Virus record (IMG/VR): IMGVR_UViG_2851976983_000001
Location: 1-64,000 of that record
Reading direction: 5' to 3' (one strand)
Length of the DNA stretch: 64,000 bases
Source: a virus
Lineage: Duplodnaviria > Heunggongvirae > Uroviricota > Caudoviricetes
Shown piece after piece: positions 1,200 through 62,895 of this stretch (the first letter of the stretch is position 1; each line of letters starts with the position of its first letter). The notes below the pieces were generated by a model that ran no database searches, was not told the DNA's origin, and saw only the letters and a program-made list of their open reading frames with translations. Both the position numbers and the translations under genes were made by a program.

Positions 1200-2759
1200 A
1201 TGACTGTTCGGATTGTATCTAACGCAGTTAATGCGCTTATTTCTGGCGCAGATGACAAGGTAAAGCAACTGGTGCAACAGATGTTGAGCTACGAAGTCGA
1301 GACTGGCGACTGGAAGGGCACAAGCACAATGTTCAACTGGAGTAAAAACTCGTTCCCTGCAGGCTTTGCCAAGCCTGTAGCGGCGAACTTGAACAAGGCG
1401 GGCATCAAATGTGTTCATATCCGCAAAGACAAAGCCCCGGCGCTTGGTAAACCAAATCCGGCGGTTAACCCATTCCCATACAATCCTGATTATGCGTATC
1501 AGGATCAGACTGTGGAAACACTGGTTCGAGAGGGAATGATGATTGCGCAGATCGCTACTGGTGGCGGGAAATCTAACGTTGCCTGCAAAGCAGCTGCACG
1601 TATCGGTCGAATGACATTATTTTTAACAACCCGCTCTGTTCTGATGTTTCAAATGGCCGAAAACTTCCAGAGATCCATCGACTACCGCGCCGAAAATGGC
1701 GAACCGTGGTTAAAAGACCAAAAGGTTGGAGTCATTGGCTCGGGTGAGTTCCAGGTATCACGACATATCAACGTCGCTACAGTTCAAACTCTTGCAAGTT
1801 TCCTCGAAGAACCACCACGCGATGCAACACCAGATAAGAAAAGCTACCACCTCAAACGTCGGGAGTTGGTGAAACGCTTCCTTTCAAGTGTCTCTCTTCT
1901 TATTCTGGAAGAGGCGCATGAGTCTTCAGGCTCAAATTTCTATGACATCGCCAGATTATGTGTGAACGCAGACTATCGTCTGGCGCTTACAGCCACGCCG
2001 TTCATGAAGGATTCGACGGAAGCCAACATGCGCCTGATGGCGGTGGCCGGGCGAATTGAAATTAAAGTCACAGAAAAGTACCTGATTGATCGAGGCATTC
2101 TGGCAAAGCCGTACTTCCTTTATCATAAAGTTGCCTACAAGCCAGACGAGGCCAGAATCAAGGCCGAACTTGCCAACAAACACCTCAATTTTAGAGTTGG
2201 TATGAGCACCGCCTACCAAAAGGCTTATCAGTTGGGGATCGTGTATAATTTGGGACGTAACGAGGCCATTGTTCGCGAAGCATTGCTCTATAAGCAACAT
2301 TCTCTCAATTGTATGACTCTGGTTCGTCTTAAACGCCACGGGCAAATCCTGATGGAAATGATGAAAGAGTCCGGCCTTAGAGTTGACTTCATCTATGGGG
2401 AATCTAACCAGGCGACAAGGCAAGCAAAGCTGAACAGTTTAGCGTCTGGAGAAATAGATGTTTTAATAGGCTCGACTATTCTGGATGTCGGTGTTGATGT
2501 GCCAAGCGTTGGTGCGGTCATTCTTGCTGGTGGTGGGAAAGCAGAAGTTGAAATGAGGCAGCGTGTCGGTCGTGGCTTACGAGCCAAAAAAAATCAGGCA
2601 AACGTGTGTTTTATCACTGATTTCATTGACATTAGCAACAAATACCTGTTGTCTCACTCTTATGAGCGAAAACACATCATCGACACCACACCTGGCTTTG
2701 CAGAAGGTGTATTGCCTATTGATGGAGCATTCGATTTTGGAGTTCTGAAACGAGATTAG
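1200..2759 (+). CDS. SF2 DEAD/DEAH-type DNA helicase
   Basis: 519-aa ORF; Walker A ATGGGKS, DEAH-like LEEAH, motif III LTATP, C-terminal helicase domain with GRGLR; purine-rich RBS before ATG. Confidence 0.8.
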   Translation: MTVRIVSNAVNALISGADDKVKQLVQQMLSYEVETGDWKGTSTMFNWSKNSFPAGFAKPVAANLNKAGIKCVHIRKDKAPALGKPNPAVNPFPYNPDYAYQDQTVETLVREGMMIAQIATGGGKSNVACKAAARIGRMTLFLTTRSVLMFQMAENFQRSIDYRAENGEPWLKDQKVGVIGSGEFQVSRHINVATVQTLASFLEEPPRDATPDKKSYHLKRRELVKRFLSSVSLLILEEAHESSGSNFYDIARLCVNADYRLALTATPFMKDSTEANMRLMAVAGRIEIKVTEKYLIDRGILAKPYFLYHKVAYKPDEARIKAELANKHLNFRVGMSTAYQKAYQLGIVYNLGRNEAIVREALLYKQHSLNCMTLVRLKRHGQILMEMMKESGLRVDFIYGESNQATRQAKLNSLASGEIDVLIGSTILDVGVDVPSVGAVILAGGGKAEVEMRQRVGRGLRAKKNQANVCFITDFIDISNKYLLSHSYERKHIIDTTPGFAEGVLPIDGAFDFGVLKRD

Positions 2760-2761
2760 TT

Positions 2762-3040
2762 ATGAGCGAAAAGAAAACAACTTATTGTCAGGTAGCATTG
2801 TCTGATAAGGCCAATGACAAACTTGGAAAGTTTCAAGTGAAACTAAAAGAAAAAAATATCAAAATGTCTAAGGCTGAAGTCATAAATACCATTCTGGAAC
2901 AATTGACAATGGCCGACTTTGACAAGGTTATATCTTCTGTCGGGGCTTCCGCTAAGACTCGTGAGAAAATCATGCGTATCTATGAGAACTCTAATATGAC
3001 AAAGGAAGATCTCGAAACGCTATTAAGCAGATTAAAATAA
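2762..3040 (+). CDS. hypothetical protein (92 aa)
   Basis: ORF starts 3 nt after helicase stop, same strand; no recognisable motif. Confidence 0.45.
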   Translation: MSEKKTTYCQVALSDKANDKLGKFQVKLKEKNIKMSKAEVINTILEQLTMADFDKVISSVGASAKTREKIMRIYENSNMTKEDLETLLSRLK

Positions 3041-3108
3041 TCACGCTATCAATTAGGGAGACAAAGATGAAGTCTCCCATACTGTTCACTTTCTGTTCTA
3101 AAACTATC

Positions 3109-3535: not shown

Positions 3536-4060
3536 ATGACAACCAAAGATATTACCTACGGTATCCAAGCTGAACTCTGGCCGCGAGATTACACTAACGT
3601 TGAAAAACTACTGATGTTCTGGCGCAGAGAACAAATTCCTGTAAGGGTCACTCTCGAAGATGGTCAGGCGTTTTGCATGTACGTTTATGGCCTCATGCCA
3701 TCTCGCAACAAAGTTGACCTTTGCCCAGCCCCTTTTGACAAAGAAAATCGTATAAGGCTCCCACTTGAACGCATTAGTACAATTGAATCAGGTGTGGTTG
3801 ACAGTATCGCTCACGATTTCAAAGGTCGATTAACAGTTCACCCTGATTATGTCGATAATCGGCCATCACGCCGCGATTTTTTTGCAATTTGCAACCAAGC
3901 CTACAAAGCAAACAAATCTATAAGGGTGTACATGGCGGATGGCCGTGAAATTGAGGGGGTGTCAGCAGGCGCAGATGCTTGTCAGGTTACACTACGTGTC
4001 GAGAACGGTAGAAAAATAGTTGTTTTGTTCGATTGGGTTGAACGAATTTTGCCTTTTTGA
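3536..4060 (+). CDS. hypothetical protein (174 aa)
   Basis: Track ORF 3458..4060 overlaps the lipoprotein gene; first in-frame ATG after the lipoprotein stop is 3536 (MTTKDITYG...). Confidence 0.45.
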   Translation: MTTKDITYGIQAELWPRDYTNVEKLLMFWRREQIPVRVTLEDGQAFCMYVYGLMPSRNKVDLCPAPFDKENRIRLPLERISTIESGVVDSIAHDFKGRLTVHPDYVDNRPSRRDFFAICNQAYKANKSIRVYMADGREIEGVSAGADACQVTLRVENGRKIVVLFDWVERILPF

Positions 4061-4063
4061 GTT

Positions 4064-4372
4064 ATGAAATCGATATTGTTACCACCATTATTTTTACTTT
4101 GCTCAGTTGCGGCAAATGCAATGGACTATAAGCCTGTCATTCAGTCGCTGATGAATGACGTGTGCTCAACGTCTCAGAATGTATCAGTTTGCATGTATCA
4201 ATTTTCGGCAGCCGTAAAAGCAGGAAAAGCGATAGGTGAGAATGTGGAACTGTGTAAGAAAGTGGCAAATGAAGAACGGGCAATGTTGGATTGCGAATCT
4301 AGCGAGTCATCGGCACAGTTCGTTGATGCGCTATTTGACACCAATCGTAAGGCTGTAGAGTCTGTTCAATAA
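4064..4372 (+). CDS. secreted hypothetical protein
   Basis: 102-aa ORF with N-terminal signal-like segment MKSILLPPLFLLCSVAANA. Confidence 0.5.
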   Translation: MKSILLPPLFLLCSVAANAMDYKPVIQSLMNDVCSTSQNVSVCMYQFSAAVKAGKAIGENVELCKKVANEERAMLDCESSESSAQFVDALFDTNRKAVESVQ

Positions 4373-8739: not shown

Positions 8740-9069
8740 TTACGCGAATACCTCAAGAAACTCCTGAACGTCCCAATGCTGGACGAGGTGAAGATAGACC
8801 TTAGAAATCACGTCATTTTCGCTATCGCATGTGAAGTAGTACTTCTGGCTGCGGTTGTATGTGTCCACACAAAATTCGCTCATATCCATAAAGTCAGCAT
8901 CTTCACCCAGGTCGCTGATCATCAAAGCAGGTGCATCATCACGAGTCATCAGCTCCAGCACCCATCTTGAATTAATCAGAGTGGAAGACCAACCTTCCAG
9001 CTCATAGAACTGGTCAAACTCTTTTTGAGTTAATTTCTTGATTTGGTTGATGTCGATATTTGCAAACAT
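8740..9069 (-). CDS. hypothetical protein
   Basis: Track ORF 8740..9090; likely start MFANIDINQ; AAACAACATGTTTTCTTGTTGGTGTTAT motif upstream. Confidence 0.45.
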   Translation of the reverse strand: MFANIDINQIKKLTQKEFDQFYELEGWSSTLINSRWVLELMTRDDAPALMISDLGEDADFMDMSEFCVDTYNRSQKYYFTCDSENDVISKVYLHLVQHWDVQEFLEVFA

Positions 9070-9429
9070 AAAGCAATCCTTAAACAACATGTTTTCTTGT
9101 TGGTGTTATTATCGCAATAACACACAGGCGAAAAAGGATTTTATTCCGGTGAATGTGGTTTTGGCAGTGAGTTTTCAGGTTCAGTATCGAGTACACTTTT
9201 TACATTATTCTGATTTAGTGGCCGAAGGTGGCTGGTGGGCAGAATAATCCTCTCCCCGAAAACCTACTGAAATCGATTGTGACCCGCTGACTGTCTGGCA
9301 CAATTACGCTGTAGTTGGGCATTCAGAGGGAATCCAGCGGTAAGTAAGTTCGCCTGCACGTGAGCGCCTCTCTTCTTCCCGCACATTACAGGTGGGTAGC
9401 CGCAACTCTCCCTCACGCTATACCGGTAC

Positions 9430-9575
9430 GCCGCCGTTCCTGAACCGGCATCGAGCCTTTTCCCGAAATCCACACAGGCAACTCGACCGTTTCCCTGAAA
9501 ACCTCCAGCCGTTCCCCGAAGGCAACCCAGCCGTTTCTGTAGCGGGATGCAGCCTTTTCCCTGTATGGACCGAAG
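9430..9575. repeat. iterated GCCGTTTCCC-type repeats (block copy 2)
   Basis: Six copies (gccgttcctgaa, gccttttcccgaaa, accgtttccctgaaaa, gccgttccccgaa, gccgtttctgtag, gccttttccctgta) at about 22-23 bp spacing. Confidence 0.65.
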
Positions 9576-9739
9576 GCTGACCGTAGGGGTGTTACGGGGG
9601 ATAAAATCAGGAGTTGAATAAATACGAAAAAGGAGGCGACACCCCTCCTTCCCTCCCCACTTATACATACCTGACTTCTTCGCTATACATGTTGTGTTTT
9701 CTTCGTGTTTTATCTGTCTCAACCTCTCTATAGTCGTTA

Positions 9740-10540
9740 ATGCTCACTCCTTCCAGAACGTTCTATACGGCGACTATTTCTGTTGGTGAATTGGGTGTGT
9801 TGTTTTCTCTGTCGGTGTATGTGGTTTCGTTAGTTTTGCGGTGATTCTTCTATGGGGTGTTCTCGTCGTTTTGGTGATTGTTCTTCTCCGTGTATGGAGT
9901 AATGGCAGGTTGGCGATTCCTTTCGTTATTGTGTTTGAGTTGTTTGTCTGGAGTGTGTGAAGGCTTTTGTAGTTATTCGTGTATTGGGTAATGGCGTTTC
10001 CCGTGATTGTTATGTTTCGTGTCTTTTGGGATTGAGAGAAACCTTGCGGTTACAGGCTTCGTTGGGGTTTCAGCGGTTCAGGTGTTTCTTCGCTGTTTGG
10101 GTAATGGCGTGTCGTGGGTATCGCGCGTATGAATGTTTTCGGATTGCCTGTGAAAGTTAGGTTGGTTGTCCGGTAGCCTGGGGAGAAGAGGTGGGTCTTT
10201 TCGGTAGCCTGCCATAAAGAGGTTGGTTGTTTTGGGAATGGCATATGTGTTATTTAGTTGTTTTGTTATGCCTGAAAATAAGTTGTTTATATGGTTGTGT
10301 AACGCAACGGGAACGATTTTGAGCGTGTGTTTTTGTTGGTAGTGTGTTGAGTCGTCTGTGGTGAAAATTGGACGCTGTGGCGCTGTCTGCTGCGTAGAAT
10401 TACGGGTATAAGAAGTGATGTGTGAAAACGTCAATTTTTTAGACCAAATCGGGTGAAAGCGTTGATGTTTCGTTGATCTGTTATTTAGTTGTTTTCTTGA
10501 TTGTATAAACAACTATAACTTATTGATATTTAAGGATGTG
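9740..10540. other. 0.8-kb non-coding region, strongly G+T-rich on the + strand
   Basis: Very few C on the + strand; degenerate internal repeats (GGGTAATGGCGT at 9980 and 10100; GGTAGCCTGG..GAGGTGGG at 10160-10245, related to 7000-7075); track ORFs here are low-complexity artefacts. Confidence 0.6.
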
Positions 10541-10631
10541 ATTGCGGGTATGGAAGGGGAGTAGTGGCGATCAACGGATTCTTATAGAAAAGAATCAAAT
10601 TGTGACCGCCATTATCAATAAGTTACAACCG

Positions 10632-11201
10632 CTAGTTGTTCAGATAAACATTTGGAACACGGACGTAGAAGTTCCTGTCGCCGGTAAGTTCCAGAGTAAT
10701 GTTAATGTCATTACCATTGTCTAGTGTAGCCGTTGCTCTATAGAACTTATCCGTCACCTTGTCCTCTATTGTCACCTTCATACATTTTGGTGCAGTCGAA
10801 CCGTTATTCTCTTTCAGAATAGTTGTCACGAGAGGGCAGGCTGCTTCTTCAAGAGCAACCTCGTCCTTGTGTGGGATGCCGATGAAGATAATCCAAGCCA
10901 GCGACGCAACGATTATGATAAATGGCACTCTGCTGCCTTTTGTAATAGTCGCGCGCTTCCAGAGATAGACAGGCAGGAGGAATACCCCCCATAGAATTGA
11001 AGGTGGTTCACAGCCAGACTCCGATAGAGCCATTCTGTCAGCTACTAACAAACCGATGGTAGTTACACCCCCAATTATAATAGCGTAATTGGTATACTCT
11101 TCCGGCGATACTCCAAAGAAGAAAGGCATGAACGCTAGAATCCACGCATAAATGTTATTCAGAGGTTTTGTTTGTTGGTTCTGGGTTTCCATCACATCCA
11201 T
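10632..11201 (-). CDS. integral membrane protein, hypothetical
   Basis: 189-aa ORF with several hydrophobic helix-length segments. Confidence 0.5.
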   Translation of the reverse strand: MDVMETQNQQTKPLNNIYAWILAFMPFFFGVSPEEYTNYAIIIGGVTTIGLLVADRMALSESGCEPPSILWGVFLLPVYLWKRATITKGSRVPFIIIVASLAWIIFIGIPHKDEVALEEAACPLVTTILKENNGSTAPKCMKVTIEDKVTDKFYRATATLDNGNDINITLELTGDRNFYVRVPNVYLNN

Positions 11202-11353
11202 TCCATCACATAAAAATCGCGTTTATATATTATCAATTTTCTCACTTGTATAACCTAAATACGCATCCGTTTATCAATCCACCTTCCACAAACATCGGCT
11301 TTAGCTATGAAAAATAACAATCTCAAAGTGAAAACCATTATCATAGGAAACGA

Positions 11354-11539
11354 TTAGATGAGATGGTCTAATTCATCATCTATCATTGCTTTAACACTTG
11401 AGTCATTAACCCCGTATTGATTTATGAACCGTTTCAGCTCCGGTGAAAACTGAAGGTAGATATCGTGAGCGTTTTTCACTGTAGGTTCAACGCCACGCAT
11501 TTCAAGCGCCTTTAGTAGATATGAGTCTTCTTTAAGCAT
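11354..11539 (-). CDS. hypothetical small protein (61 aa)
   Basis: ORF in co-directional gene string. Confidence 0.35.
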   Translation of the reverse strand: MLKEDSYLLKALEMRGVEPTVKNAHDIYLQFSPELKRFINQYGVNDSSVKAMIDDELDHLI

Positions 11540-11575
11540 AAATTCTCCGTTGTCTAGTATGAAGCGATTGCCGGA

Positions 11576-11884
11576 TTACCATTGCCAGCACTCTAGCCCT
11601 TCAACGACCGGTGCACCACAATCAAAATGTACAGAGTCAAAGCCTACATCAAGTACTTTCTGAATGTTCGCAATCGCGCCCTCGGATATACCATATCGAC
11701 GCAACTCATCTTTCCAGTCATCGTCCTGTAACCCGGCGTGGACAATGCAACCGTACTCAATTTGTGAAACCCAATCCAGCTCATTGCTTGCGATCATGAA
11801 TCGGCGAGCATCTTCCTCTGATGTATGAGATGAACTGATCAATGCCACCTGGTAGGCTTGGGTAATGTTCAACATTTCAACCAC
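11576..11884 (-). CDS. hypothetical protein (102 aa)
   Basis: ORF with AAACAATTTGTTTTCTT motif upstream (two copies at 11886-11955). Confidence 0.45.
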   Translation of the reverse strand: MVEMLNITQAYQVALISSSHTSEEDARRFMIASNELDWVSQIEYGCIVHAGLQDDDWKDELRRYGISEGAIANIQKVLDVGFDSVHFDCGAPVVEGLECWQW

Positions 11885-12036
11885 TCCAAAACAATTTGTT
11901 TTCTTATGTGGCTTATTATCTCAATCAACAAAAGGTAGAAAACAAATTGTTTTAAGGCTTGTTTAAATCAGGAGGGATTGTGTCTATATGAAAATGCCCA
12001 GCGTGTTGCCGGGCATTGCGAACAGAGGTTGTTTAA

Positions 12037-14070
12037 TTACTTAACCTGGTGGCCAGGTTTAGCACCGACATCCGGGCTTAACAGGAAGATATCTTTCCCG
12101 CCAGGGCCAGCAGCCATCACCATGCCTTCGGAGATACCGAAGCGCATTTTACGCGGAGCCAGGTTAGCCACCATAATGGTGTGACGACCAATCAGTGCCT
12201 GTGGGTCTGGATAAGCAGAACGAATGCCGGAGAAGACATTGCGTTTTTCACCGCCGAGATCCAGCGTCAGGCGTAGCAGTTTGTCAGAACCTTCAACAAA
12301 CTCTGCGTTTTCGATCAACGCCACGCGCAGGTCAACTTTGGCGAAGTCGTCAAAGGTGATGGTTTCCTGAATCGGGTCGTCAGCCAGTGGGCCAGTTACC
12401 GGTGCGGCTGTGGCTTTCACTTCTTCTTTGGATGCTTCCACCAGTGCTTCAACCTGCTTCATATCGATGCGGTTATACAGTGCCTTGAACGGATTCACTT
12501 TATGGCCCAGCAGCGGTTGCTGGATACCATCCCAGGTCAGTTCTGTATTCAGGAATGCTTCTGCACGTTCAGTCAGTTTCGGCAGTACCGGCTTCAGGTA
12601 CGTCATCAGCACGCGGAACAGGTTAATGCCCATAGAGCAAATCGCCTGCAGATCGGCATCGCGTCCTTCCTGCTTCGCCACCACCCACGGAGCCTGTTCA
12701 TCGACATAGCGGTTAGCCAGATCAGCCAGCGCCATGATTTCACGAATCGCTTTACCAAATTCGCGGCTTTCCCATGCTTCACCAATCACTTCAGCGGCAT
12801 CAGTAAAGGTTTTGTACAGTTGCGGGTCAGCCAGTTCGCCTGCCAGCACACCGTCAAAACGCTTATTGATAAAGCCCGCGTTACGGGACGCCAGATTCAC
12901 CACTTTGTTCACGATATCGGCATTCACGCGCTGAACGAAATCCTCCAGGTTGAGATCGATATCATCAATGCGCGAAGAGAGTTTCGCAGTGTAGTAGTAA
13001 CGCAGGCTGTCAGCGTCAAAATGATTCAGCCAGGTGCTGGCTTTAATAAAGGTGCCGCGAGACTTGGACATCTTCGCACCGTTCACCGTCACATAGCCGT
13101 GAACAAATAGGTTAGTCGGCTTGCGGAAGTTGCTGCCTTCCAGCATGGCAGGCCAGAACAGGCTGTGGAAGTAAACGATATCTTTACCGATGAAGTGATA
13201 CAGCTCGGCGGTGGAGTCTTTCTTCCAGTATTCATCGAAGCTGGTGGTATCGCCGCGCTTGTCGCACAGATTCTTGAAGGAACCCATGTAGCCAATCGGC
13301 GCGTCCAGCCAGACGTAGAAGTATTTGCCCGGTGCGTTCGGAATTTCAAAACCGAAGTAAGGTGCGTCACGGGAGATATCCCACTGTTGCAGGCCAGATT
13401 CAAACCACTCCTGCATTTTGTTTGCCACCTGCTCCTGCAACGCACCGCTGCGGGTCCATGCCTGCAACATTTCGCTGAAAGAAGGCAGATCAAAGAAGAA
13501 GTGTTCGGAATCACGCATTACCGGCGTAGCACCAGAAACTACCGATTTCGGCTCGATCAGTTCAGTCGGGCTGTAAGTCGCGCCGCAGACTTCACAGTTA
13601 TCGCCGTATTGATCTGGCGCTTTACATTTAGGGCAGGTGCCTTTTACAAAACGGTCCGGCAGGAACATGCCTTTTTCCGGGTCGTACAGCTGAGAGATAG
13701 TGCGGTTTTTAATAAAACCGTTCTCTTTCAGGCGAGTATAGATAAGCTCAGACAACTGACGGTTCTCTTCGCTGTGCGTCGAGTGATAGTTGTCATAGCT
13801 GATGTTAAAGCCTGCGAAATCAGTCTGGTGTTCCTGACTCATTTCGCCAATCATCTGCTCCGGTGTGATACCAAGCTGCTGTGCTTTCAGCATGATCGGC
13901 GTACCGTGGGCATCGTCGGCACAGATGAAATTAACCTCGTGGCCGCGCATTCGCTGGTAACGAACCCAGACATCAGCCTGGATGTGCTCCAGCATATGGC
14001 CGAGGTGGATTGAGCCGTTAGCGTACGGCAGCGCGCACGTCACCAGAATTTTCTTCGCGACTTGGGTCAT
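12037..14070 (-). CDS. metG: methionine--tRNA ligase (MetRS)
   Basis: Class I aaRS HIGH-type motif ([14 protein letters not shown]), KMSKS, zinc knuckle CPKC...CEVC, C-terminal tRNA-binding domain; near-identical over full length to enterobacterial MetG as I recall it; start set at MTQVAKK (14070), not the 720-aa track ORF. Confidence 0.95.
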
Positions 14071-14227
14071 AGTAGGCATTACTTCTTTGTAGTGAAAAGG
14101 GGCTTGATAGTAACAAAATGGCCTTATGTCTGCCATGTGATAACAGCATTTCTCATAAATGATTAAATGTCGTAGCTGGAGTACACTACAAGGCGACAAT
14201 TGCGCAAATTAAAATAAAGGAGACGGG

Positions 14228-15328
14228 ATGAGCGAGTCCAAATCGCCGGATGCCCTGAGAGCAATGGTAGCCGGTACGCTGGCTAATTTTCAGCACCCAA
14301 CCCTGAAACACAACCTGACTACGCTTAAAGCGTTACACCATGTTGCGTTGATGGATGACACACTGCATGTCGAACTAATCATGCCTTTCGTGTGGAATAA
14401 GCCTTTTGAAGACCTGAAAGAGCAATGTAGTGGTGATCTGCTCCGTATCACTGGCGCAAAGGCTATTGACTGGAAGCTGTCGTACAACATTGCCACGCTT
14501 AAGCGCGTCAAAAACCAACCAGGCATTAATGGCGTTAAGAACATTATCGCCGTCAGCTCAGGCAAAGGCGGCGTGGGTAAATCCTCCACGGCGGTAAACC
14601 TGGCACTGGCGTTGGCTGCTGAAGGTGCGAAAGTTGGTATTTTGGATGCCGATATCTATGGTCCATCAATTCCAACCATGCTGGGCGCGGAAAACCAACG
14701 TCCAACCTCACCTGACGGTACTCACATGGCACCTATCATGTCTCATGGCCTGGCAACCAACTCTATTGGTTATCTGGTCACCGACGACAATGCAATGGTG
14801 TGGCGTGGACCGATGGCCAGCAAGGCGCTGATGCAGATGTTGCAGGAAACTCTATGGCCTGATCTGGACTATCTCGTTCTCGATATGCCGCCGGGCACTG
14901 GTGATATTCAGTTGACGCTGGCGCAGAACATTCCTGTAACTGGTGCGGTTGTGGTAACTACGCCGCAAGACATCGCGCTGATCGATGCGAAGAAAGGCAT
15001 TGTGATGTTCGAAAAAGTCGAAGTGCCGGTACTGGGTATCGTCGAAAACATGAGTGTGCATATTTGCAGTAACTGCGGTCATCACGAGCCAATTTTTGGC
15101 ACCGGTGGCGCACAGAAACTGGCCGAGAAATACAACACGCAGTTGTTAGGCCAAATGCCACTTCATATCTCTCTTCGTGAAGATCTGGATAACGGAACAC
15201 CAACCGTTATTAGTCGTCCAGATAGCGAATTTACGGCTATTTATCGTGACCTCGCAGATCGCGTTGCTGCCCAAATGTATTGGCAAGGTGAAGTAATACC
15301 TGGCGAAATCGCATTCCGCGCAGTGTGA
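14228..15328 (+). CDS. apbC: Fe-S cluster carrier ATPase ApbC/Mrp
   Basis: P-loop SSGKGGVGKSS, CxxC pair (CSNCGHHEP); divergent from metG as in enterobacterial chromosomes. Confidence 0.9.
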   Translation: MSESKSPDALRAMVAGTLANFQHPTLKHNLTTLKALHHVALMDDTLHVELIMPFVWNKPFEDLKEQCSGDLLRITGAKAIDWKLSYNIATLKRVKNQPGINGVKNIIAVSSGKGGVGKSSTAVNLALALAAEGAKVGILDADIYGPSIPTMLGAENQRPTSPDGTHMAPIMSHGLATNSIGYLVTDDNAMVWRGPMASKALMQMLQETLWPDLDYLVLDMPPGTGDIQLTLAQNIPVTGAVVVTTPQDIALIDAKKGIVMFEKVEVPVLGIVENMSVHICSNCGHHEPIFGTGGAQKLAEKYNTQLLGQMPLHISLREDLDNGTPTVISRPDSEFTAIYRDLADRVAAQMYWQGEVIPGEIAFRAV

Positions 15329-15365
15329 TAAAAAGGCGGTGCATTGCACCGCCTAATCAGTTCTC

Positions 15366-15755
15366 CTACATCACGGGACAATCATCAAACTCGCCACTTC
15401 TTGCGTCGTTGATAATGTGAGTGATCACACCAAACACGGCATTGCTGCCCGTGCATCCATCGTCATCCTTTGGCAATGCTTCCTTCTTACCGGTTCTTAA
15501 ATCCTCCAGATGCTGACGTGGATACTTCCGGTATCTTTTTACGCGATATTCCCCATCCAGAGCGCATACAAGCAGAGAACCATCAACCGGGGTAAGTGAG
15601 GAATCGACCACCAGCAATGCACCCTGTAATATTCCCTCACGATGATGACTATCAGCTGCCCTCATGAAGTAGGTCGCTGAAGGATGTCTAATTATCTGCT
15701 GATCAAGAGAAATACGGCTCTCAGCATAATCCGCCGCAGGAGAAGGGAAGCCCAT
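15366..15755 (-). CDS. UmuD'-like S24 peptidase (HumD-like)
   Basis: GFPSPAADY, Ser in DS motif and Lys in RVKRY align with the UmuD catalytic dyad; no N-terminal cleavage arm, so UmuD'-like; LexA box 17 bp upstream. Confidence 0.75.
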   Translation of the reverse strand: MGFPSPAADYAESRISLDQQIIRHPSATYFMRAADSHHREGILQGALLVVDSSLTPVDGSLLVCALDGEYRVKRYRKYPRQHLEDLRTGKKEALPKDDDGCTGSNAVFGVITHIINDARSGEFDDCPVM

Positions 15756-15771
15756 AATACTCGCCTCTTAA

Positions 15772-15791
15772 TACTGTATATGCATACAGTA
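15772..15791. promoter_or_regulatory. LexA (SOS) box
   Basis: TACTGTATATGCATACAGTA matches CTGT-N8-ACAG consensus. Confidence 0.75.
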
Positions 15792-16417
15792 TATGTTGAA
15801 GCTATATATTTTTGAACTCTATCTCTTAAAAAAGATGTTAATAAGATGCTAACTATTGAAAGGCATAAATATATACAATTCCAACAAACGTTATTTTTAA
15901 CAAATTTTTTCTCTCCGTTGACTTTTGCGAAAGCCTTGTCTGGCCTAAATTGCGCGGAAGCTACTTTTTCCTTACAGAGTTATCCACAGAGTTATGCACT
16001 TGCATGTATAACCTATACACACTATCTTAATTCGCAAGACACTGATGTTGCGGTATTGAAGGTTCATTGGGTTAAAAATAGACATTAAAAAGCCCAGTTG
16101 ACTAGGCTGGGCTTTTTAAAAGGAAACAGAGTTTGCGGCTCTGTTCCTGAGCCATAAGTATCTGGCGACTGAATTAAGATTAACCGAATGTACTGGATTC
16201 ATCAAGAAACGTTGAGTGGTCATACCAGGTAATAATGGCCATTTACTAAACATCGTTGTTCTCAAAGAAGATTTAAGTCCAGGTTTTTGGTGACTCTAAA
16301 ACCTTACCTTAACTCGAAATCGTGCCGTAAGTATCTGGCGACTACAGATATTGCAACTGCAAAGGCAAGCCCAAAGGTATTTGCAGCTAGGCGCGATAAA
16401 ACTAAGTGAGGCCTGTT

Positions 16418-16501
16418 ATGGTTAACTTACTGTTCAAAATCGTGCCGCCGATGTTCGCGATTATCAAAGCGATCATTGAGTACGTAAACCAGCGTCCATA
16501 A
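16418..16501 (+). CDS. possible small hydrophobic peptide (27 aa)
   Basis: Hand translation MVNLLFKIVPPMFAIIKAIIEYVNQRP; followed by hairpin at 16510-16545; weak. Confidence 0.2.
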   Translation: MVNLLFKIVPPMFAIIKAIIEYVNQRP

Positions 16502-16556
16502 CGCTAGTTGCTACAGGCCCCATCAAGAGCATGGGGCCTCTTTATCGTACTATTGC

Positions 16557-17183
16557 TTATTTTTTACGGACTGAGTTGTTCACTGCTCTGGCAATCTTCT
16601 CCCGCAATTGCTGCGTTCCGTGATACGTAACCGCAATATCCCGCAACTCGTTCACTAGTTCTCGAATTTGGTGATCTTTAAGCTCATTATTTGGGTGATT
16701 GGTAACAACTCTGGTTAATTCCCCCTTGTCTTTTGCTCTTACGTATGCAGCTCTTGTGCATTCGACCCATGTATTACCACCTACATTAACTTCGTAGATT
16801 AGGCTGGACTTATCTGTCAATTCGGAACAAATACGGGCCGTGGTCTGGCAACTAGAGCATTCGCAGTTATCGCGGAAACCGTGATCTACCGGTCGAGAAA
16901 GAGGTTTAACTTTTTCATCCAACTTCATCACAGCATCGTGATAAGCGTTCCAGCCGTCATCTTTACCAAGTTGATAAATCTCTGAAGGCTCCATGTAGTC
17001 TATATCGCAACCATCTTCATCTGATCTATCTGGTCGTTTCCCTGGTAATCGCTCATAAAAACGATTTCTGTCTCGACGTTCGGCTCTCAGTGCTAACGCA
17101 AGAAGTTGCTCAAGCGAGGTATTCGCACCAGCAATAATTTCATTGAGAATATCTTCTGTGAGATCTTTCGCTACCGTGCTCAT
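16557..17183 (-). CDS. hypothetical protein (208 aa)
   Basis: Last gene of a tightly packed minus-strand string 20614 to 16557. Confidence 0.5.
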   Translation of the reverse strand: MSTVAKDLTEDILNEIIAGANTSLEQLLALALRAERRDRNRFYERLPGKRPDRSDEDGCDIDYMEPSEIYQLGKDDGWNAYHDAVMKLDEKVKPLSRPVDHGFRDNCECSSCQTTARICSELTDKSSLIYEVNVGGNTWVECTRAAYVRAKDKGELTRVVTNHPNNELKDHQIRELVNELRDIAVTYHGTQQLREKIARAVNNSVRKK

Positions 17184-21537: not shown

Positions 21538-24908
<3,371 letters not shown>

Positions 24909-26477: not shown

Positions 26478-27122
26478 TTACAGCGCGTCAGTGGGCTTTT
26501 TACGCGCTGCGTTTATGCTTATGACGCCAGCTTTTGGACGTGGGTCAACAAGGTTAAGCTCTTCTTCGCTGTGGTATTCGAGGTCGAACTCACGTTTTAC
26601 ATGTCTGATGTAGATTGCTGTGAGCAGGCTATCTTTGGTCAGAAAGTGTCCGTAGGATTTGCGGATCACTTCTTCTACCTTCTCGATTTTCTCACCACCC
26701 ATACAGAGATGATTAAACCGGCTGTGTTTCCGCAACATTTCGTCTACTGGGCCTGAGTAAACCTTGTCTACTTTCCCAAAACGGATGATTTTCCCTGTGT
26801 CTGCGGATACGAGGCAAATCAGCTTGTCTGGTGATAAACGATCTCGCCACGTCACACCTGAACGGAGTGTGTTGAAGTAGGGAGCATCCAATCCGATGAT
26901 CGGTTTACGAAATGCGAGTAATGGAACGTACCTGATGCAACTGTTTAAATGAAAATTCACACCAGCCTTATCAAGTTTAATTCTGGTTTCGTAGATCGGG
27001 CACTTCGCCGCTATACCGCAGATGTCACAAAGCAACTTCTGCTTATTCAGGTTGGAATTTGATTCGATAGTGTAGGAGCCGTCTTCAAGACGACGAACCC
27101 AGCGCGTGCGTTTTAGATCCAT
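26478..27122 (-). CDS. hypothetical Cys-rich protein (214 aa)
   Basis: CDICGIAAKCP cluster; no family recognised. Confidence 0.45.
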   Translation of the reverse strand: MDLKRTRWVRRLEDGSYTIESNSNLNKQKLLCDICGIAAKCPIYETRIKLDKAGVNFHLNSCIRYVPLLAFRKPIIGLDAPYFNTLRSGVTWRDRLSPDKLICLVSADTGKIIRFGKVDKVYSGPVDEMLRKHSRFNHLCMGGEKIEKVEEVIRKSYGHFLTKDSLLTAIYIRHVKREFDLEYHSEEELNLVDPRPKAGVISINAARKKPTDAL

Positions 27123-27200
27123 ATGTCATTTTTCTGTGATTGTTAGCCGAGGCAACGATAACCCACCAGGTGCGCCGAAGGTAGTAAATGCCTGTTTTAA

Positions 27201-27290
27201 TTATTCACATATCCACAGGATAGATCCTAATAAAGAGATCCATAGATAGATCCTTGTATAGATCAAATAAGATCCCCGATCGCTGTAAGC
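27201..27290. promoter_or_regulatory. origin-proximal DnaA box and GATC cluster
   Basis: TTATTCACA at 27201-27209 fits TTATNCACA; six GATC within about 60 bp with (A)GATCC repeats, as in P1 oriR by my recollection. Confidence 0.55.
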
Positions 27291-27322
27291 CGCGCCACGA
27301 CTGGTCTGAAGCCATGTTCATG

Positions 27323-27423
27323 TATGCTGTCAGCGGTAATTGATAGTCTGTCAACGGTTCGCCGTATGCTGCCAACTGTTTTTGGTATGCTGCCAGCGGC
27401 AAATCAAGTATGCTGTCAGCGGT
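27323..27423. repeat. RepA iterons, upstream set (4 copies)
   Basis: GTATGCTGTCAGCGGT-type 16-mers at 27323, 27364, 27385, 27408. Confidence 0.8.
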
Positions 27424-27443
27424 TGAATGACAAAGGTGTCCAC

Positions 27444-28538
27444 ATGTCCACAAAAAATAAAAAAGGTAAAAATAACAAAGAAGTAGAAGATAATCTCGAC
27501 AACTTTGAAGAAGGTTCCCTTGAATTGTACACAGGGGAACTTGTCCCTAATAGCAACAATACAGTCCAACCAATTGCGTTGATGCGGCTGGGATTGTTCG
27601 TGCCCACGCTCAAGGGGACAAAATACAGCAAGCGTAACAAGCCAAATGAGATCGATGCTTCAAAGGAGCTTGTTCAGCTCGAAGTAGCCCGTTCTGAAGG
27701 CTATTCCGATATCAAGATAACCGGTCCTCGTCTCGACATGGATCATGATTTCAAAACGTGGGTGGGCGTTGTGCGTTCGCTGGCAGAATACGGCGAACCT
27801 AACGGTCGTGTCGAGTTAAGCATCACGAAATTTGCGAAGTTTTGTGGCTATCCATCGTCACAGATCCGCAAAACACTCCGCGACCGGCTTACAAACAGTC
27901 TTTTGAAGATCATGCGTACAACTCTGTCTTTCCAGAGAACGTATGAAGAAAAGAACGTCGACGGCTCTAACAAGATCTCGCTTCTGATGGTGCACCTCAT
28001 CAATAGCGTGGACTACAACGAGCAGAAAGATACGGTGGTGTTCTATGCAGAACCGAAGCTGGCCGAACTATATCGCTTTGACCATAAGGTTCTTTTGCAG
28101 TTAAAGGTTATCAATAAGCTACCACGCAAAGAAACAGCACAGGCTCTGTACACCTTCATCGAAAGTCTTCCAACCAAGCCTGCGCCGGTATCGCTTGCTC
28201 GATTGCGTGCGCGACTCAATTTGAGTAGCAGGAATGTCAGCTCGCAGAATCAGACTATACGTAACGGCTTAAAAGCTCTCCAAGATTTGGGCTATCTCGA
28301 ATACAGCGAGATTAAGCGAGGGCGGTCGATCTATATCCAGATTCACAGCCGCAATCCAAAACTTAAAGTCGCACCGCCAAAACCTGAAGACATCGAACCC
28401 AAAAAACCAGATGAGAAAGCCGGGGAAATTGATGCTAAACAGAACATTATCAACAAGATAACTGAACTTTCGCAGAATTTGACGCCTGAAAATATCAAGA
28501 TGATTGAGATCCTTTCCAATAGTCTCAAACTGCTTTGA
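27444..28538 (+). CDS. repA: iteron-binding replication initiator RepA (P1/P7 RepA family)
   Basis: Segments NSNNTVQPIALMRLG, KITGPRLDMDHDFKTW and HSRNPKLK match P1 RepA as I recall it; iterons on both sides; start at MSTKNKK with AAAGGTG RBS. Confidence 0.8.
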   Translation: MSTKNKKGKNNKEVEDNLDNFEEGSLELYTGELVPNSNNTVQPIALMRLGLFVPTLKGTKYSKRNKPNEIDASKELVQLEVARSEGYSDIKITGPRLDMDHDFKTWVGVVRSLAEYGEPNGRVELSITKFAKFCGYPSSQIRKTLRDRLTNSLLKIMRTTLSFQRTYEEKNVDGSNKISLLMVHLINSVDYNEQKDTVVFYAEPKLAELYRFDHKVLLQLKVINKLPRKETAQALYTFIESLPTKPAPVSLARLRARLNLSSRNVSSQNQTIRNGLKALQDLGYLEYSEIKRGRSIYIQIHSRNPKLKVAPPKPEDIEPKKPDEKAGEIDAKQNIINKITELSQNLTPENIKMIEILSNSLKLL

Positions 28539-29070
28539 TATGCTGTCAGCGGTGAAATGTATGCTATCAGCGGCTATTTTTCTGAAAAGTATGCTGTGAA
28601 CGGTTAAAGATATGCTACCAGCGGTATAGTGAGATAAACGTATGCTGTGAGCGGTAAATCATCTATCACCACTCAATGCTCTTTTATACCTCCCCAGTGG
28701 TTACTAACCTCGAAGAGTGCATTCCATATAGGTTTGCGCTCACTAACATTCTATTCCCATTGCGCTGATTACTTGTAGTGAAAGGTATTTATTGCCTGCT
28801 GCTCCCTGATAGAACGTATGCTGTCAGCGGTGTTTTATTGAGGAATTTTTGTTTGGATATGCTATCAGCGGTAATTAATGGCATATATCAGACCTTCGTA
28901 TGCTGCCAGCGGTAATTTTGTTCTGGTTATACCCATACCGATACACATTATTCATGCAATGTCTTAAGTATGCTGTCAGCGGTAAAAAATCGAGTAAAGT
29001 ATGCTGTGAGCGGTGAGATAGACTCTCGATATGCTATCAGCGGCAGTTGATTGTGTATGCTGTCAGCGGT
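28537..29070. repeat. RepA iterons, downstream set (12 copies in two clusters)
   Basis: (G/A)TATGCT(G/A)(T/C)(C/G)A(G/A)CGG(T/C) at 28537, 28559, 28589, 28610, 28641, 28816, 28857, 28898, 28968, 28999, 29030, 29055; begins at repA stop codon. Confidence 0.8.
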
Positions 29071-29117
29071 GACGACTATGAAATATGACTGCGGAACGTG
29101 CCGCAGTCAGTTTGCAT

Positions 29118-29330
29118 TTAGTGTATTTTCTTCAACAGACCCCAAAGTGTTCCGGCTTTTGTAGTCAGTTTTCCTGTTTCTGGATCGTACATACGCCATT
29201 CACGCCGCTGGTGGACGATATACCCATCTTCACGTTCCAGACGCTCAAGAATGCCAGGCTGCTTGAAACCCTTAGCACGCCAGTATCCGCTTGTTTTCTC
29301 GATTTCCAGACCTGCCAGTGTTAATGCCAT
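29118..29330 (-). CDS. hypothetical small protein (70 aa)
   Basis: ORF in co-directional string after the iteron array. Confidence 0.4.
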   Translation of the reverse strand: MALTLAGLEIEKTSGYWRAKGFKQPGILERLEREDGYIVHQRREWRMYDPETGKLTTKAGTLWGLLKKIH

Positions 29331-29665
29331 TATCCAACCTCCTTGCAGTCATCGAAAAGGTAGCTTTGCTGAGAAGCGTGAACGCCATAGAAGCCCTTGT
29401 ATTTGTTGTATACGAAGTGGTCTTCTCCGACGCCGGTTAATTTGCCATTACGGTTTGTGAGATATGGGGATGACAACACTCGATCGTCACGCACAACATA
29501 GAACTGGTCGCCGCTGTCTACGACCATCGCTCCATATGGTGCTTTTATGACGTCGGCAAGAGCGCCATTCTTAACGTCGGCTACAGACATTTCACACTGA
29601 TAAACAGTGGTGTCGGCCACAACGATCGAGGAAAGGAACAACAGAGTGAATGGGATGGCCTTCAT
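29330..29665 (-). CDS. secreted hypothetical protein (111 aa)
   Basis: N-terminal signal-like MKAIPFTLLFLSSIVVA. Confidence 0.45.
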   Translation of the reverse strand: MKAIPFTLLFLSSIVVADTTVYQCEMSVADVKNGALADVIKAPYGAMVVDSGDQFYVVRDDRVLSSPYLTNRNGKLTGVGEDHFVYNKYKGFYGVHASQQSYLFDDCKEVG

Positions 29666-61833: not shown

Positions 61834-61868
61834 GCATTGGCGCAACGTACGCGCCAATGCATGATTTT
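61834..61868. terminator. bidirectional rho-independent terminator
   Basis: Hairpin GCATTGGCGC-AACGTAC-GCGCCAATGC followed by ATGATTTTTA. Confidence 0.6.
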
Positions 61869-62227
61869 TAACCTTTTTTCATCAACTCTCGTTTGATTTC
61901 ATCGGTACGCATCGTGACATCGGCAGCTGTGATCGCCTCGTTAAGTTTCACGATGTCCTCGATTTCCTGCGGTGACTTCTCTGCCAGATGGAAAATGGCT
62001 GCGCGAATCACGTCTGAACGGGTGAACTTCTCGAAGCGAGGGATGAACTTCATCATCTCCAGCAGTTCGAAGTATTCGTCCTCCAGTGACATTGTGCGGC
62101 TTTTAATTTTCTCTTTGCCACGAGTCGGGCGTCCCTGTGGTCTGACTGGTTGGCGCAAAGGAGTTGTGTTCTTAGCCGGTGCATCAGGCTCTTTGCGCTT
62201 TGCTAGGTCACCCATTTTCATGGACAT
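61868..62227 (-). CDS. small partition-protein candidate (ParG/ParB-like partner of ParA)
   Basis: 119 aa, basic N-terminus; directly downstream of parA with overlapping stop/start. Confidence 0.5.
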   Translation of the reverse strand: MSMKMGDLAKRKEPDAPAKNTTPLRQPVRPQGRPTRGKEKIKSRTMSLEDEYFELLEMMKFIPRFEKFTRSDVIRAAIFHLAEKSPQEIEDIVKLNEAITAADVTMRTDEIKRELMKKG

Positions 62228-62895
62228 TATTCTTCTTCCTCCAGACTCAACAGATAATCTACAAATTCTTCAAACTCGGCTTCCGCCTTTTTGTCGCGCT
62301 CGCTACCGGTCATTTCAAAGATAGAACGACCAGACTCTTCCGCATCATCATAGACGTTGCGGTTATATAGATTGACTGGCGCAGACTCGATGCCAAACGT
62401 CTCAACAATCTCTTTAGCCGCCAGAATGCGAGACACTTGTGATGGCAAAGCCGGGCACTGGTTCATGACCGCGCGGACCTTCACTTTATCGTTTACATTA
62501 CGAACATTGTCGATAATAGGATCGATGTCACGCAGAGATTTCAAATCACGACGCTTAGGACGAAGCGGGATAATGATAACGTCGGCCATCAGCATCGCTT
62601 GTCGCTGAATTTCGGAGTCAAAGCCACCAGCATCTACCACTACATACTCAGCTCTACCCTGAAGCGATTTTAGGTGCTTAATGATGTCATCCTGAACGTA
62701 TGCAAAAGGAATCAGCTCAAGGTCTTCGTTCTGTCGACGGTCTTCACACCAGCTCGTTGTCGTGCGCTGAATATCTATATCGGTGATATAAACCTTCTTC
62801 TTCTTTTTGACTTTCAGGCAAACGGCAATTTGCTGGGCAACGGTGGATTTGCCAGGCCCGCCCTTTGTGCCGCCAACCACAAAGATCTTGGTCAT
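62227..62895 (-). CDS. parA: ParA-family partition ATPase (small type)
   Basis: Deviant Walker A GGTKGGPGKST at N-terminus, 222 aa. Confidence 0.8.
   Translation of the reverse strand: MTKIFVVGGTKGGPGKSTVAQQIAVCLKVKKKKKVYITDIDIQRTTTSWCEDRRQNEDLELIPFAYVQDDIIKHLKSLQGRAEYVVVDAGGFDSEIQRQAMLMADVIIIPLRPKRRDLKSLRDIDPIIDNVRNVNDKVKVRAVMNQCPALPSQVSRILAAKEIVETFGIESAPVNLYNRNVYDDAEESGRSIFEMTGSERDKKAEAEFEEFVDYLLSLEEEE

Follow-up and report, generated by a model that had tools for sequence, protein, structure and literature searches.

The 64,000-nucleotide stretch analysed here (the window) comprises positions 1 to 64,000 of the IMG/VR virus record IMGVR_UViG_2851976983_000001. Its segment 27201-29110 is very probably a complete theta-type, iteron-controlled replicon of the RepFIB/P1 RepA family, which keeps a phage-plasmid of the SSU5 supergroup at low copy number. 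The segment contains an origin leader with DnaA boxes and GATC sites, five iterons, the gene of the initiator RepA and an array of twelve further iterons (Table 1). The analysis established that the initiator and the leader are homologous to those of phage P1 and that RepA has an initiator fold; it further established how many binding sites there are, how they are phased and how they co-vary, and that only plasmids carry the replicon. The replicon belongs to a well-known family, of which it is an ordinary representative, and will not surprise specialists in plasmid replication. Its main value is corrective and concerns the gene model of the initiator, the position of the origin and the number of iterons.

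The RepA initiator and its start codon

A preliminary description of the window had proposed a RepA-like initiator of 364 residues, and database searches bore this out. In BLASTP the protein is 46% identical to P1 RepA over 278 residues (E 4e-86), and the Pfam family PF01051 (Rep_3 WH1, Rep3_N) matches residues 118-239 with 37.5 bits against a cut-off of 22.4 (E 3.9e-9). The same domain is carried by all 120 listed RepA homologues. In tblastn against the P1 and P7 records the identity is 43.5% (E 2e-64). Among other phages it is 41% to the RepA of RepFIB-type P1-like phages, 48% to that of SSU5 and Cyrano, and 85-88% to that of Klebsiella phage-plasmids. More than 5,000 plasmid records contain a match, the bulk of which are IncF RepFIB initiators at about 50% identity. 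These comparisons place the protein in the RepFIB/P1 RepA family, marginally nearer to RepFIB (about 50%) than to P1 (46%). A search of RepA against NCBIfam returned no family. The top match in PHROGs, phrog_775, bears the label 'replication helicase', which was dropped because the protein is a Rep_3 initiator; the RefSeq phage records label P1 RepA identically.

A sequence-only search of the PDB with RepA found nothing. An AlphaFold model was built on a 62-sequence alignment and compared to the PDB with Foldseek. Its predicted local distance difference test (pLDDT) score is 69.8 overall and 76-92 over most of the core. All matches at E < 1e-3 are replication initiators, namely RctB, RepE, Rep-DUE complexes and the WH1 domain of MSBI1.176. 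The best match is to domains 2-3 of RctB (E 4e-8); the RepE structures contain operator or iteron DNA, and the π protein follows at 5.5e-3. By homology and predicted fold, RepA is clearly an iteron-binding initiator. The C-terminal 55 or so residues are predicted to form a disordered linker followed by two helices. This tail was considered as a trait of the SSU5 group, an idea that was dropped when the alignment of 62 homologues showed it in most of the RepFIB family, with the P1-type RepA as the exception.

The start of repA is annotated in two ways. The RefSeq/PGAP model of 404 residues (WP_001717293.1 and WP_024180339.1, 'RepB family') starts at 27324, inside iteron 1. The N-terminal extension of the 404-residue forms, encoded by 27324-27443, consists of translated iterons (MLSAV... 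repeats), and the reading frame upstream of 27444 stays open only because the iterons located there hold no in-frame stop. Homologues from other genera begin at a methionine equivalent to 27444 (M-[ST]-T-x-K-K...), and P1 RepA aligns to the 364-residue form from residue 32 onward. An AAGG Shine-Dalgarno sequence is located at 27433-27436, 7 nt upstream of the ATG at 27444. The annotation of phage PhiR41_1 uses the short start, and many assemblies are rotated to begin at this very ATG. This sequence evidence points to 27444, and not 27324, as the true start of repA.

Origin leader, iterons and their variation in relatives

Iterons were searched with the consensus GTATGCTGTCAGCGGT on both strands of the 64-kb window, allowing up to three mismatches, with dinucleotide-preserving shuffles of the sequence as the control. 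The 16-mer RTATGCTGTCAGCGGT has 16 matches, all of them on the plus strand and confined to 27322-29070, against 0.44 ± 0.64 (maximum 2) in the shuffled windows. No inverted copy was found on the minus strand of the window at this threshold. Upstream of repA the scan located the four iterons that had been described before, at 27322, 27364, 27385 and 27408. Lining up the copies reveals a degenerate fifth, ATAGTCTGTCAACGGT, at 27343. Because this copy sits exactly in the 42-bp gap, the upstream iterons follow each other at 21, 21, 21 and 23 bp. The total is 17 iterons, five upstream and twelve downstream of repA.

The twelve downstream copies, a number on which the earlier count and the present one agree, start at 28538, 28559, 28589, 28610, 28640, 28816, 28857, 28898, 28968, 28999, 29029 and 29055 and span 533 bp. 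The first of them begins on the final base of the repA TGA stop codon (28538), as described previously. The array falls into three groups of five, three and four copies rather than into the two clusters reported, with steps of 176 and 70 bp, start to start, between them. Most downstream spacings are near multiples of the helical turn. Within the iteron, positions 2-7 and 11-15 are nearly invariant and positions 8-10 are variable. Two conserved halves around a variable centre fit an arrangement in which each half-site is bound by one winged-helix domain.

A search for the exact 16-mer in species-representative genomes (about 596 Gb) gave 113 stretches with a hit, fewer than the roughly 280 estimated for chance (596×10⁹ × 2 / 4¹⁶). 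Among the 80 loci listed out of the 113, there are only single copies in unrelated taxa, except for a 109-kb Klebsiella contig with two copies. The exact 16-mer is no dispersed repeat, and the motif search confines the iteron family to the replicon. The preliminary description had named two outcomes that would speak against it, a protein without similarity to iteron-binding initiators and a 16-mer belonging to a widespread unrelated repeat, and neither was observed.

The leader to the left of the iterons contains the elements that would bind host factors. Both left-hand DnaA boxes have one mismatch to TTATCCACA. The first of them, at 27201-27209, had been described before; the second adjoins it directly. 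The two boxes align to the annotated DnaA-binding site of P1 oriR and are kept in pJN2-26, JK004 and RCS47. GATC sites follow at 27223, 27237, 27249, 27261, 27271 and 27278. These six sites in 59 bp, reported earlier as six in about 60 bp, form the densest cluster of the window, which on average has 3.95 GATC per kb. The leader (27201-27285) has an adenine-plus-thymine (AT) content of 63.5% compared to 53.5% for the window. By analogy with P1, the GATC cluster is the probable target of Dam and SeqA and the probable site of origin opening. When 27190-27450 is aligned to P1 oriR, the nucleotide sequences prove homologous and near-identical in the DnaA boxes, in the GATC heptamers and in the GCCGCGCCACG block. 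The block between the GATC repeats and the iterons, rich in guanine and cytosine (GC), is nearly invariant among P1, JK004, RCS47, pJN2-26 and the window despite their differing iterons, and beyond it the sequences of the window and P1 diverge into their own iterons. The putative repA promoter overlaps the 5' ends of iterons 4 and 5, and its position matches that of P1 PrepA (TTGCTA-N18-TAGGAT). At the right end of the origin, where the window has two DnaA-like boxes, the P1 repA leader has CTATCCACA at the equivalent place.

Table 1. Features of the replicon, in positions of the window
Feature	Position	Strand	Remarks
Two tandem DnaA boxes, TTATTCACA (27201-27209) and ATATCCACA (27209-27217)	27201..27217	+	left end of the origin
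GATC cluster: five AGATC(C/A) heptamer-type repeats and CGATCG	27220..27281	+	aligns to 'Dam methylation sites 1-5' of P1
GC-rich block GATCGCTGTAAGCCGCGCCACGACTGG... between GATC repeats and iterons	27278..27321	+	conserved
Five origin iterons (incC-like)	27322..27423	+	spacing 21/21/21/23 bp; P1 incC 22/21/21/21
Putative repA promoter, TTGGTA (27382-27387), N18, AAGTAT (27406-27411)	27382..27411	+	read from sequence
Two DnaA-box-like 9-mers, GTGTCCACA and ATGTCCACA	27436..27452	+	2 mismatches each; overlap the start codon; right end of the origin
repA, 364 residues	27444..28538	+	ATG to TGA; WH1-WH2 core about 40-309; linker and two-helix tail 310-364
Downstream iteron group 1, 5 copies	28538..28655	+	spacing 21/30/21/30; first copy overlaps the repA stop
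Spacer 1, 160 bp, iteron-free	28656..28815		identical in PhiR41_1, partly alignable in Klebsiella pJN2-26
Downstream iteron group 2, 3 copies	28816..28913	+	spacing 41/41
Spacer 2, 54 bp	28914..28967		68.5% AT
Downstream iteron group 3, 4 copies	28968..29070	+	spacing 31/30/26; named oriV in PMC13463583
Perfect palindrome TGACTGCGGAACGTGCCGCAGTCA, 9-bp stem	29086..29109		terminator-like on both strands; closes the replicon

The layout is constant in the relatives examined, with five upstream iterons about 21 bp apart and an array at or right after the repA stop. P1, pJN2-26, JK004 and RCS47 share the upstream iteron number and a similar spacing. The iterons themselves are of four types, TATGCTGTCAGCGGT in the window and the Klebsiella relative, TGTGCTGGAGGG in P1 and JK004, TTGACTATACGCGA in RCS47 and AACCACTGTAGAGAGTA in SSU5. 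These four types track four RepA clades while the layout is kept. Judged by sequence, such co-variation is the pattern expected of an initiator and its cognate sites.

The downstream array is more variable. In P1, JK004, RCS47 and SSU5 a direct block is followed by an inverted block; in the window and the Klebsiella relative all copies are direct. Their number is 12 in the window, in pECAZ155_2 and in a 63-kb Escherichia albertii derivative, 9 in PhiR41_1 and 8 in pJN2-26. PhiR41_1 has lost three copies by an 87-bp deletion between two perfect iterons (4060-4075 of its locus; 28968-29070 of the window). In the 120-kb plasmid NZ_CP062914.1, which is otherwise complete, spacer 1 is interrupted by an IS91-family element of 1.7 kb (about 1333-3085 of that locus, equivalent to about 28775 of the window) and all 12 downstream iterons are kept. 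The sole DnaA-like 9-mer of spacer 2, TTATACCCA at 28927, has two mismatches and is at chance level. An Rfam search of 26900-29400 at E ≤ 1 gave no match, hence no known RNA lies in the spacers. The palindrome that follows the array sits between the last iteron and a convergent cra-like gene (29118-29330, minus strand), where it may act as a transcription stop.

Carriage, proposed control and competing explanations

The replicon is present in 116 of 5,426 complete E. coli genomes (about 2%), with no chromosomal place among them. The 2-kb module is matched by 177 plasmid records, 155 of them at ≥95% identity, and these are mostly non-mobilizable E. coli plasmids of about 110 kb. The carrier is thus a plasmid or phage-plasmid and not a chromosome, as had been proposed from the replicon architecture. 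The module is also present in phages PhiR41_1 and CMS-2020a, and the lineage is further found in Shigella, Salmonella and E. albertii, where the 63-kb derivative plasmid has an intact 17-iteron module; some members carry blaCTX-M-15. The best-matching plasmid for the window is NZ_CP025870.1 (100,470 bp), the carrier being an E. coli phage-plasmid of about 100 kb, and the genes around the replicon are the DNA-metabolism and structural set of the SSU5 group.

Over 1,921 bp, the module and p09EL50 (NC_018651.1) agree in 98.2% of nucleotides. According to PMC3999498, p09EL50 and pECOH89 (HG530657) have identical RepA proteins, which are 48% similar to the pLF82 protein. Because of this near-identity, the reported identity of the two RepA proteins and the 47.9% identity of the window's RepA to that of Cyrano (pLF82), the replicon is linked, indirectly, to pECOH89 and is assigned to its type; within the SSU5-group phage-plasmids it belongs by sequence identity to the pECOH89/p09EL50 lineage. 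In surveillance papers the name IncFIB(H89-PhagePlasmid) is current, which we take to be the PlasmidFinder name of this replicon type.

The mechanism proposed for the replicon is based on the P1 record, a review of iteron control (PMC6090056) and established knowledge. By analogy with P1, RepA monomers on the five phased origin iterons and host DnaA at the flanking boxes would act together to open the AT-rich stretch of GATC heptamers (27220-27281) and to bring in the replisome. Firing would require that host Dam has methylated the six GATC sites, and SeqA would sequester the hemimethylated origin afterwards. RepA bound to iterons 4 and 5 would cover its own promoter and so repress its own synthesis. 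The 12 downstream iterons (28538-29070) would titrate RepA and handcuff the origin iterons, resulting in low copy number and incompatibility, like P1 incA; on this analogy, the downstream array probably sets the copy number. A more speculative and doubtful proposal is that the all-direct array is an evolvable copy-number dial, in which recombination between identical iterons adds or removes sites for RepA titration and handcuffing, the 87-bp deletion of three iterons in PhiR41_1 being an example of such a step. If so, the copy number of the phage-plasmid, and with it the gene dosage, often including that of resistance genes, could shift reversibly, and unstable resistance phenotypes, heteroresistance for example, could arise in this way.

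Several points weigh against the assignment of 27201-29110 as a P1-like iteron-controlled replicon, or against parts of it. Unlike that of P1, the downstream array is devoid of an inverted block and holds two iteron-free spacers. Confidence in the RepA model is moderate at its pLDDT of 69.8, and the template modelling (TM) scores to the fold matches are 0.4-0.5. The putative repA promoter is weak, matching the consensus in 7 of 12 positions, and a promoter scan at ≥9/12 reported nothing in the iteron region, so that repA autoregulation is an inferred step. The right-hand DnaA-like boxes are weak evidence because 2-mismatch matches are common, about 4 per kb of the window. Origin firing, the dependence on Dam, DnaA and chaperones, autorepression and handcuffing are all carried over from P1.

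A different position of the origin has been published for the same replicon on plasmid pEc_K1G_A (PMC13463583, 2026), which is there called 'not related to P1 or P7' and is described with a 404-aa repB and eight downstream repeats, the last four of which are taken as oriV. The repeat coordinates given there map exactly on the window, with the oriV at 1803-1910 corresponding to 28967-29074; the count misses four of the 12 downstream iterons and all five upstream ones. According to this placement, replication would start at the last four downstream iterons, perhaps with the AT-rich spacer 2 beside them (68.5% AT), and the upstream repeats would be a coding part of a RepB protein starting at 27324. 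The frame from 27324 is indeed open, and the 404-residue protein is annotated in many RefSeq records; together with the published assignment of four 21-bp repeats as the origin, this speaks against an upstream origin. However, GATC sites are absent from the downstream region, which also has neither a DnaA box within one mismatch nor any 40-bp stretch with ≥75% AT, and PhiR41_1 lacks three of the four repeats in question. The upstream leader with its five iterons contains the DnaA boxes and the GATC cluster and is homologous to P1 oriR, the annotated origin in the P1 record. The extension of the 404-residue form is made of translated iterons and is not conserved as protein, homologues from other genera start at the equivalent of 27444, and the alignment of P1 RepA to the 364-residue form does not begin before residue 32. 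The downstream array varies in size and layout (12, 9 or 8 copies) and tolerates an insertion sequence, as befits a regulator rather than an origin. These comparisons favour the upstream origin and make the downstream oriV improbable.

Both remaining alternatives are less credible still. A long array of direct repeats with phased spacing beside a maintenance gene, on a plasmid that carries a ParA-type ATPase, resembles a partition centromere such as the 12-repeat sopC of F. The repeats of the array, however, match the origin iterons in sequence and are therefore RepA sites, all relatives have the array directly at the repA stop, P1 with an array annotated as incA among them, and the ParA-like gene is about 33 kb away, with no homologue of P1 ParA or ParB adjoining the replicon. 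A centromere is thus highly improbable. It is just as hard to accept that the replicon is a decayed remnant and that the phage-plasmid is maintained by another origin, even though a deletion associated with IS100 has occurred nearby in this plasmid copy and the plasmid group includes members with a helicase, a primase and a DnaE of their own. The repA gene is intact and 99-100% identical to that of more than 100 plasmids, all 17 iterons and the leader are conserved, also on the 63-kb derivative, and in the 68 kb examined of the near-identical plasmid pECAZ155_2 repA is the only Rep-type gene annotated.

An iteron-controlled replicon with an upstream origin entails several corrections. The 404-residue gene model translates the origin iterons, the origin lies upstream of repA and not in the downstream repeats as published, the iterons number 17 and not 4 or 8, and those of one phage record are labelled attL and attR. 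The recognition of the replicon as P1/RepFIB-type leads to testable predictions on DnaA, Dam and SeqA, chaperones, copy number and incompatibility, and copy-number control becomes testable in a clinically common phage-plasmid lineage. The part of the origin that interacts with host factors is conserved across the family while iterons and RepA diverge. Such specificity switching, of which this is a clear example, would be expected to avoid incompatibility.

Some further observations concern the phage-plasmid outside the replicon. IS100, a member of the IS21 family, is located at 21538-23491, and about 16.8 kb present in pECAZ155_2 is missing beside it. The loss takes in nrdAB, thyA, dhfr, rnhA and the gene of a phage N6-adenine methyltransferase; no match to the methyltransferase of pECAZ155_2 is left in the window. 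Since this enzyme is deleted in the present copy, the GATC-rich origin must rely on host Dam. The genes metG (12037-14199, minus strand; methionine-tRNA ligase) and apbC (about 14228-15328) are conserved cargo of the phage-plasmid lineage, and the idea that metG at 12-14 kb is a sign of chromosomal DNA was rejected for this reason. Most of the 9000-17000 segment is held by 138 of the 5,426 complete E. coli genomes, the best records being plasmids of about 110 kb; other E. coli records mostly match it at 90-95%, presumably via the chromosomal metG-apbC.

Comparison with known replicons

The P1 record annotates a DnaA-binding site, Dam sites 1-5, the incC iterons 10-14 containing PrepA, repA, and the incA iterons 1-9. 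The window resembles P1 in having a homologous RepA and an origin leader that can be aligned at the nucleotide level, five iterons about 21 bp apart ahead of repA, and a promoter-like pair that agrees in position and in its 18-nt spacing. Copy 9 of incA abuts the repA stop like the first downstream iteron of the window, with spacings of about 21, 31 and 41 bp. The iterons are unlike, RTATGCTGTCAGCGGT in the window against GATGTGTGCTGGAGGGAAA in P1 (P1 consensus ATGTGTGCTGGAGGGAAA), and therefore the incompatibility specificity of P1 (IncY) is not expected. P1 incA has nine copies, three direct and six inverted, in 285 bp (this count is from the sequence and the annotation; a scan allowing ≤4 mismatches recovered 3 + 5), whereas the window has 12, all direct, in 533 bp. 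P1 has five GATC sites and the window six; P1 RepA has 286 residues and that of the window 364, with a longer N-terminus and a tail of about 55 residues. P1 is a myovirus, and the element in the window is a siphovirus-type phage-plasmid of the SSU5 group. The P1 architecture put forward in the preliminary description thus holds for the leader, the five upstream iterons and the array at the stop codon; it does not extend to the iteron sequence, the inverted block or an adjacent parABS.

A P1-type (type Ia) parABS adjoining the replicon was not found, tblastn of P1 ParA against the window giving no match at E ≤ 1. P1 ParB has two weak tblastn matches in the window, at 23217-23369 (E 0.007) and 42783-42944 (E 0.51), the first of which corresponds to the position of an SbcC-like AAA ATPase in pECAZ155_2. 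The genes just downstream of the replicon are small open reading frames (ORFs) on the minus strand. An ATPase of the ParA/MinD family with 222 residues (Pfam AAA_31, MipZ, CbiA, ParA) is encoded at 62227-62895 on the minus strand, about 33 kb from the replicon, and is followed by an ORF of 119 residues that has no Pfam match (the two together spanning 61868-62895). These two genes are probably the partition pair of the plasmid; the ATPase is small and not P1-like.

In comparison to the RepFIB replicons of IncF plasmids, for which RepA alone was compared, the proteins are about 50-52% identical over residues 24-309, share the Pfam domain and have the same kind of C-terminal linker-plus-helix tail, which is lacking in P1 RepA. 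The type of tail differs (...NLTPENIKxIEILSNSLKLL against ...EKLxLLEKLGITLEDLEKLFK), and the carriers are conjugative in contrast to the non-mobilizable phage-plasmid of the window.

Much closer are the Klebsiella IncpKPHS1 or IncFIB(pKPHS1) elements (pKPHS1, pPMK1-B and phage pJN2-26). Their RepA is 85-88% identical, their iterons share the consensus of the window, the upstream iterons likewise number five with steps of 21/21/21/23 bp, the downstream copies are in direct orientation only and the flanking genes are the same. The differences are that the downstream iterons number 8, arranged as two sets of four, and that the spacer is shorter and largely unalignable. For the Klebsiella relatives, four iterons and no known domain have been reported (PMC6735626). 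In the GenBank record of pJN2-26, 20-bp repeats at 2378-2397 and 3648-3667, which flank rep, are labelled attR and attL; they are actually replicon iterons.

In SSU5, pHCM2 and pLF82 (Cyrano) the replicon occupies the corresponding place in the genome, flanked by the same two genes, and has the same overall layout and a RepA of the same family with a tail. The RepA identity is 47.9% to Cyrano (pLF82) and about 48% to SSU5, the iterons are unrelated, and the downstream array of SSU5 mixes direct and inverted copies. SSU5 has two tandem blocks of leader plus iterons upstream of repA (1757-1999 and 2130-2375 of its locus); the DnaA boxes and GATC repeats are intact in the distal block, and the repA-proximal block has lost most of its GATC sites. 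The flanks of the replicon in the window are an ORF of 214 residues that has no Pfam match (26478-27122, minus strand) and a gene of 70 residues annotated 'P1 Cra' or 'Cre-associated' (29118-29330, minus strand). Since the flanking genes are syntenic in SSU5 and the Klebsiella relatives though RepA and the iterons differ, the sequences suggest either divergence of the replicon or its replacement, as a cassette, at a constant location.

The most distant system to be compared is the origin of Vibrio cholerae chromosome II with its initiator RctB, domains 2-3 of which are the best structural match of the RepA model (E 4e-8). This origin has iterons, a DnaA box, a dependence on Dam and SeqA and a separate negative-control region (PMC6090056). 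RctB differs from RepA in that no sequence similarity is detectable (14% identity in the structural alignment), in its extra domains, in its 39-mer sites and in the location of GATC inside the iterons. At the other extreme, pECOH89, p09EL50 and pEc_K1G_A carry the same replicon as the window and differ in interpretation only; in the literature it is used as a typing marker.

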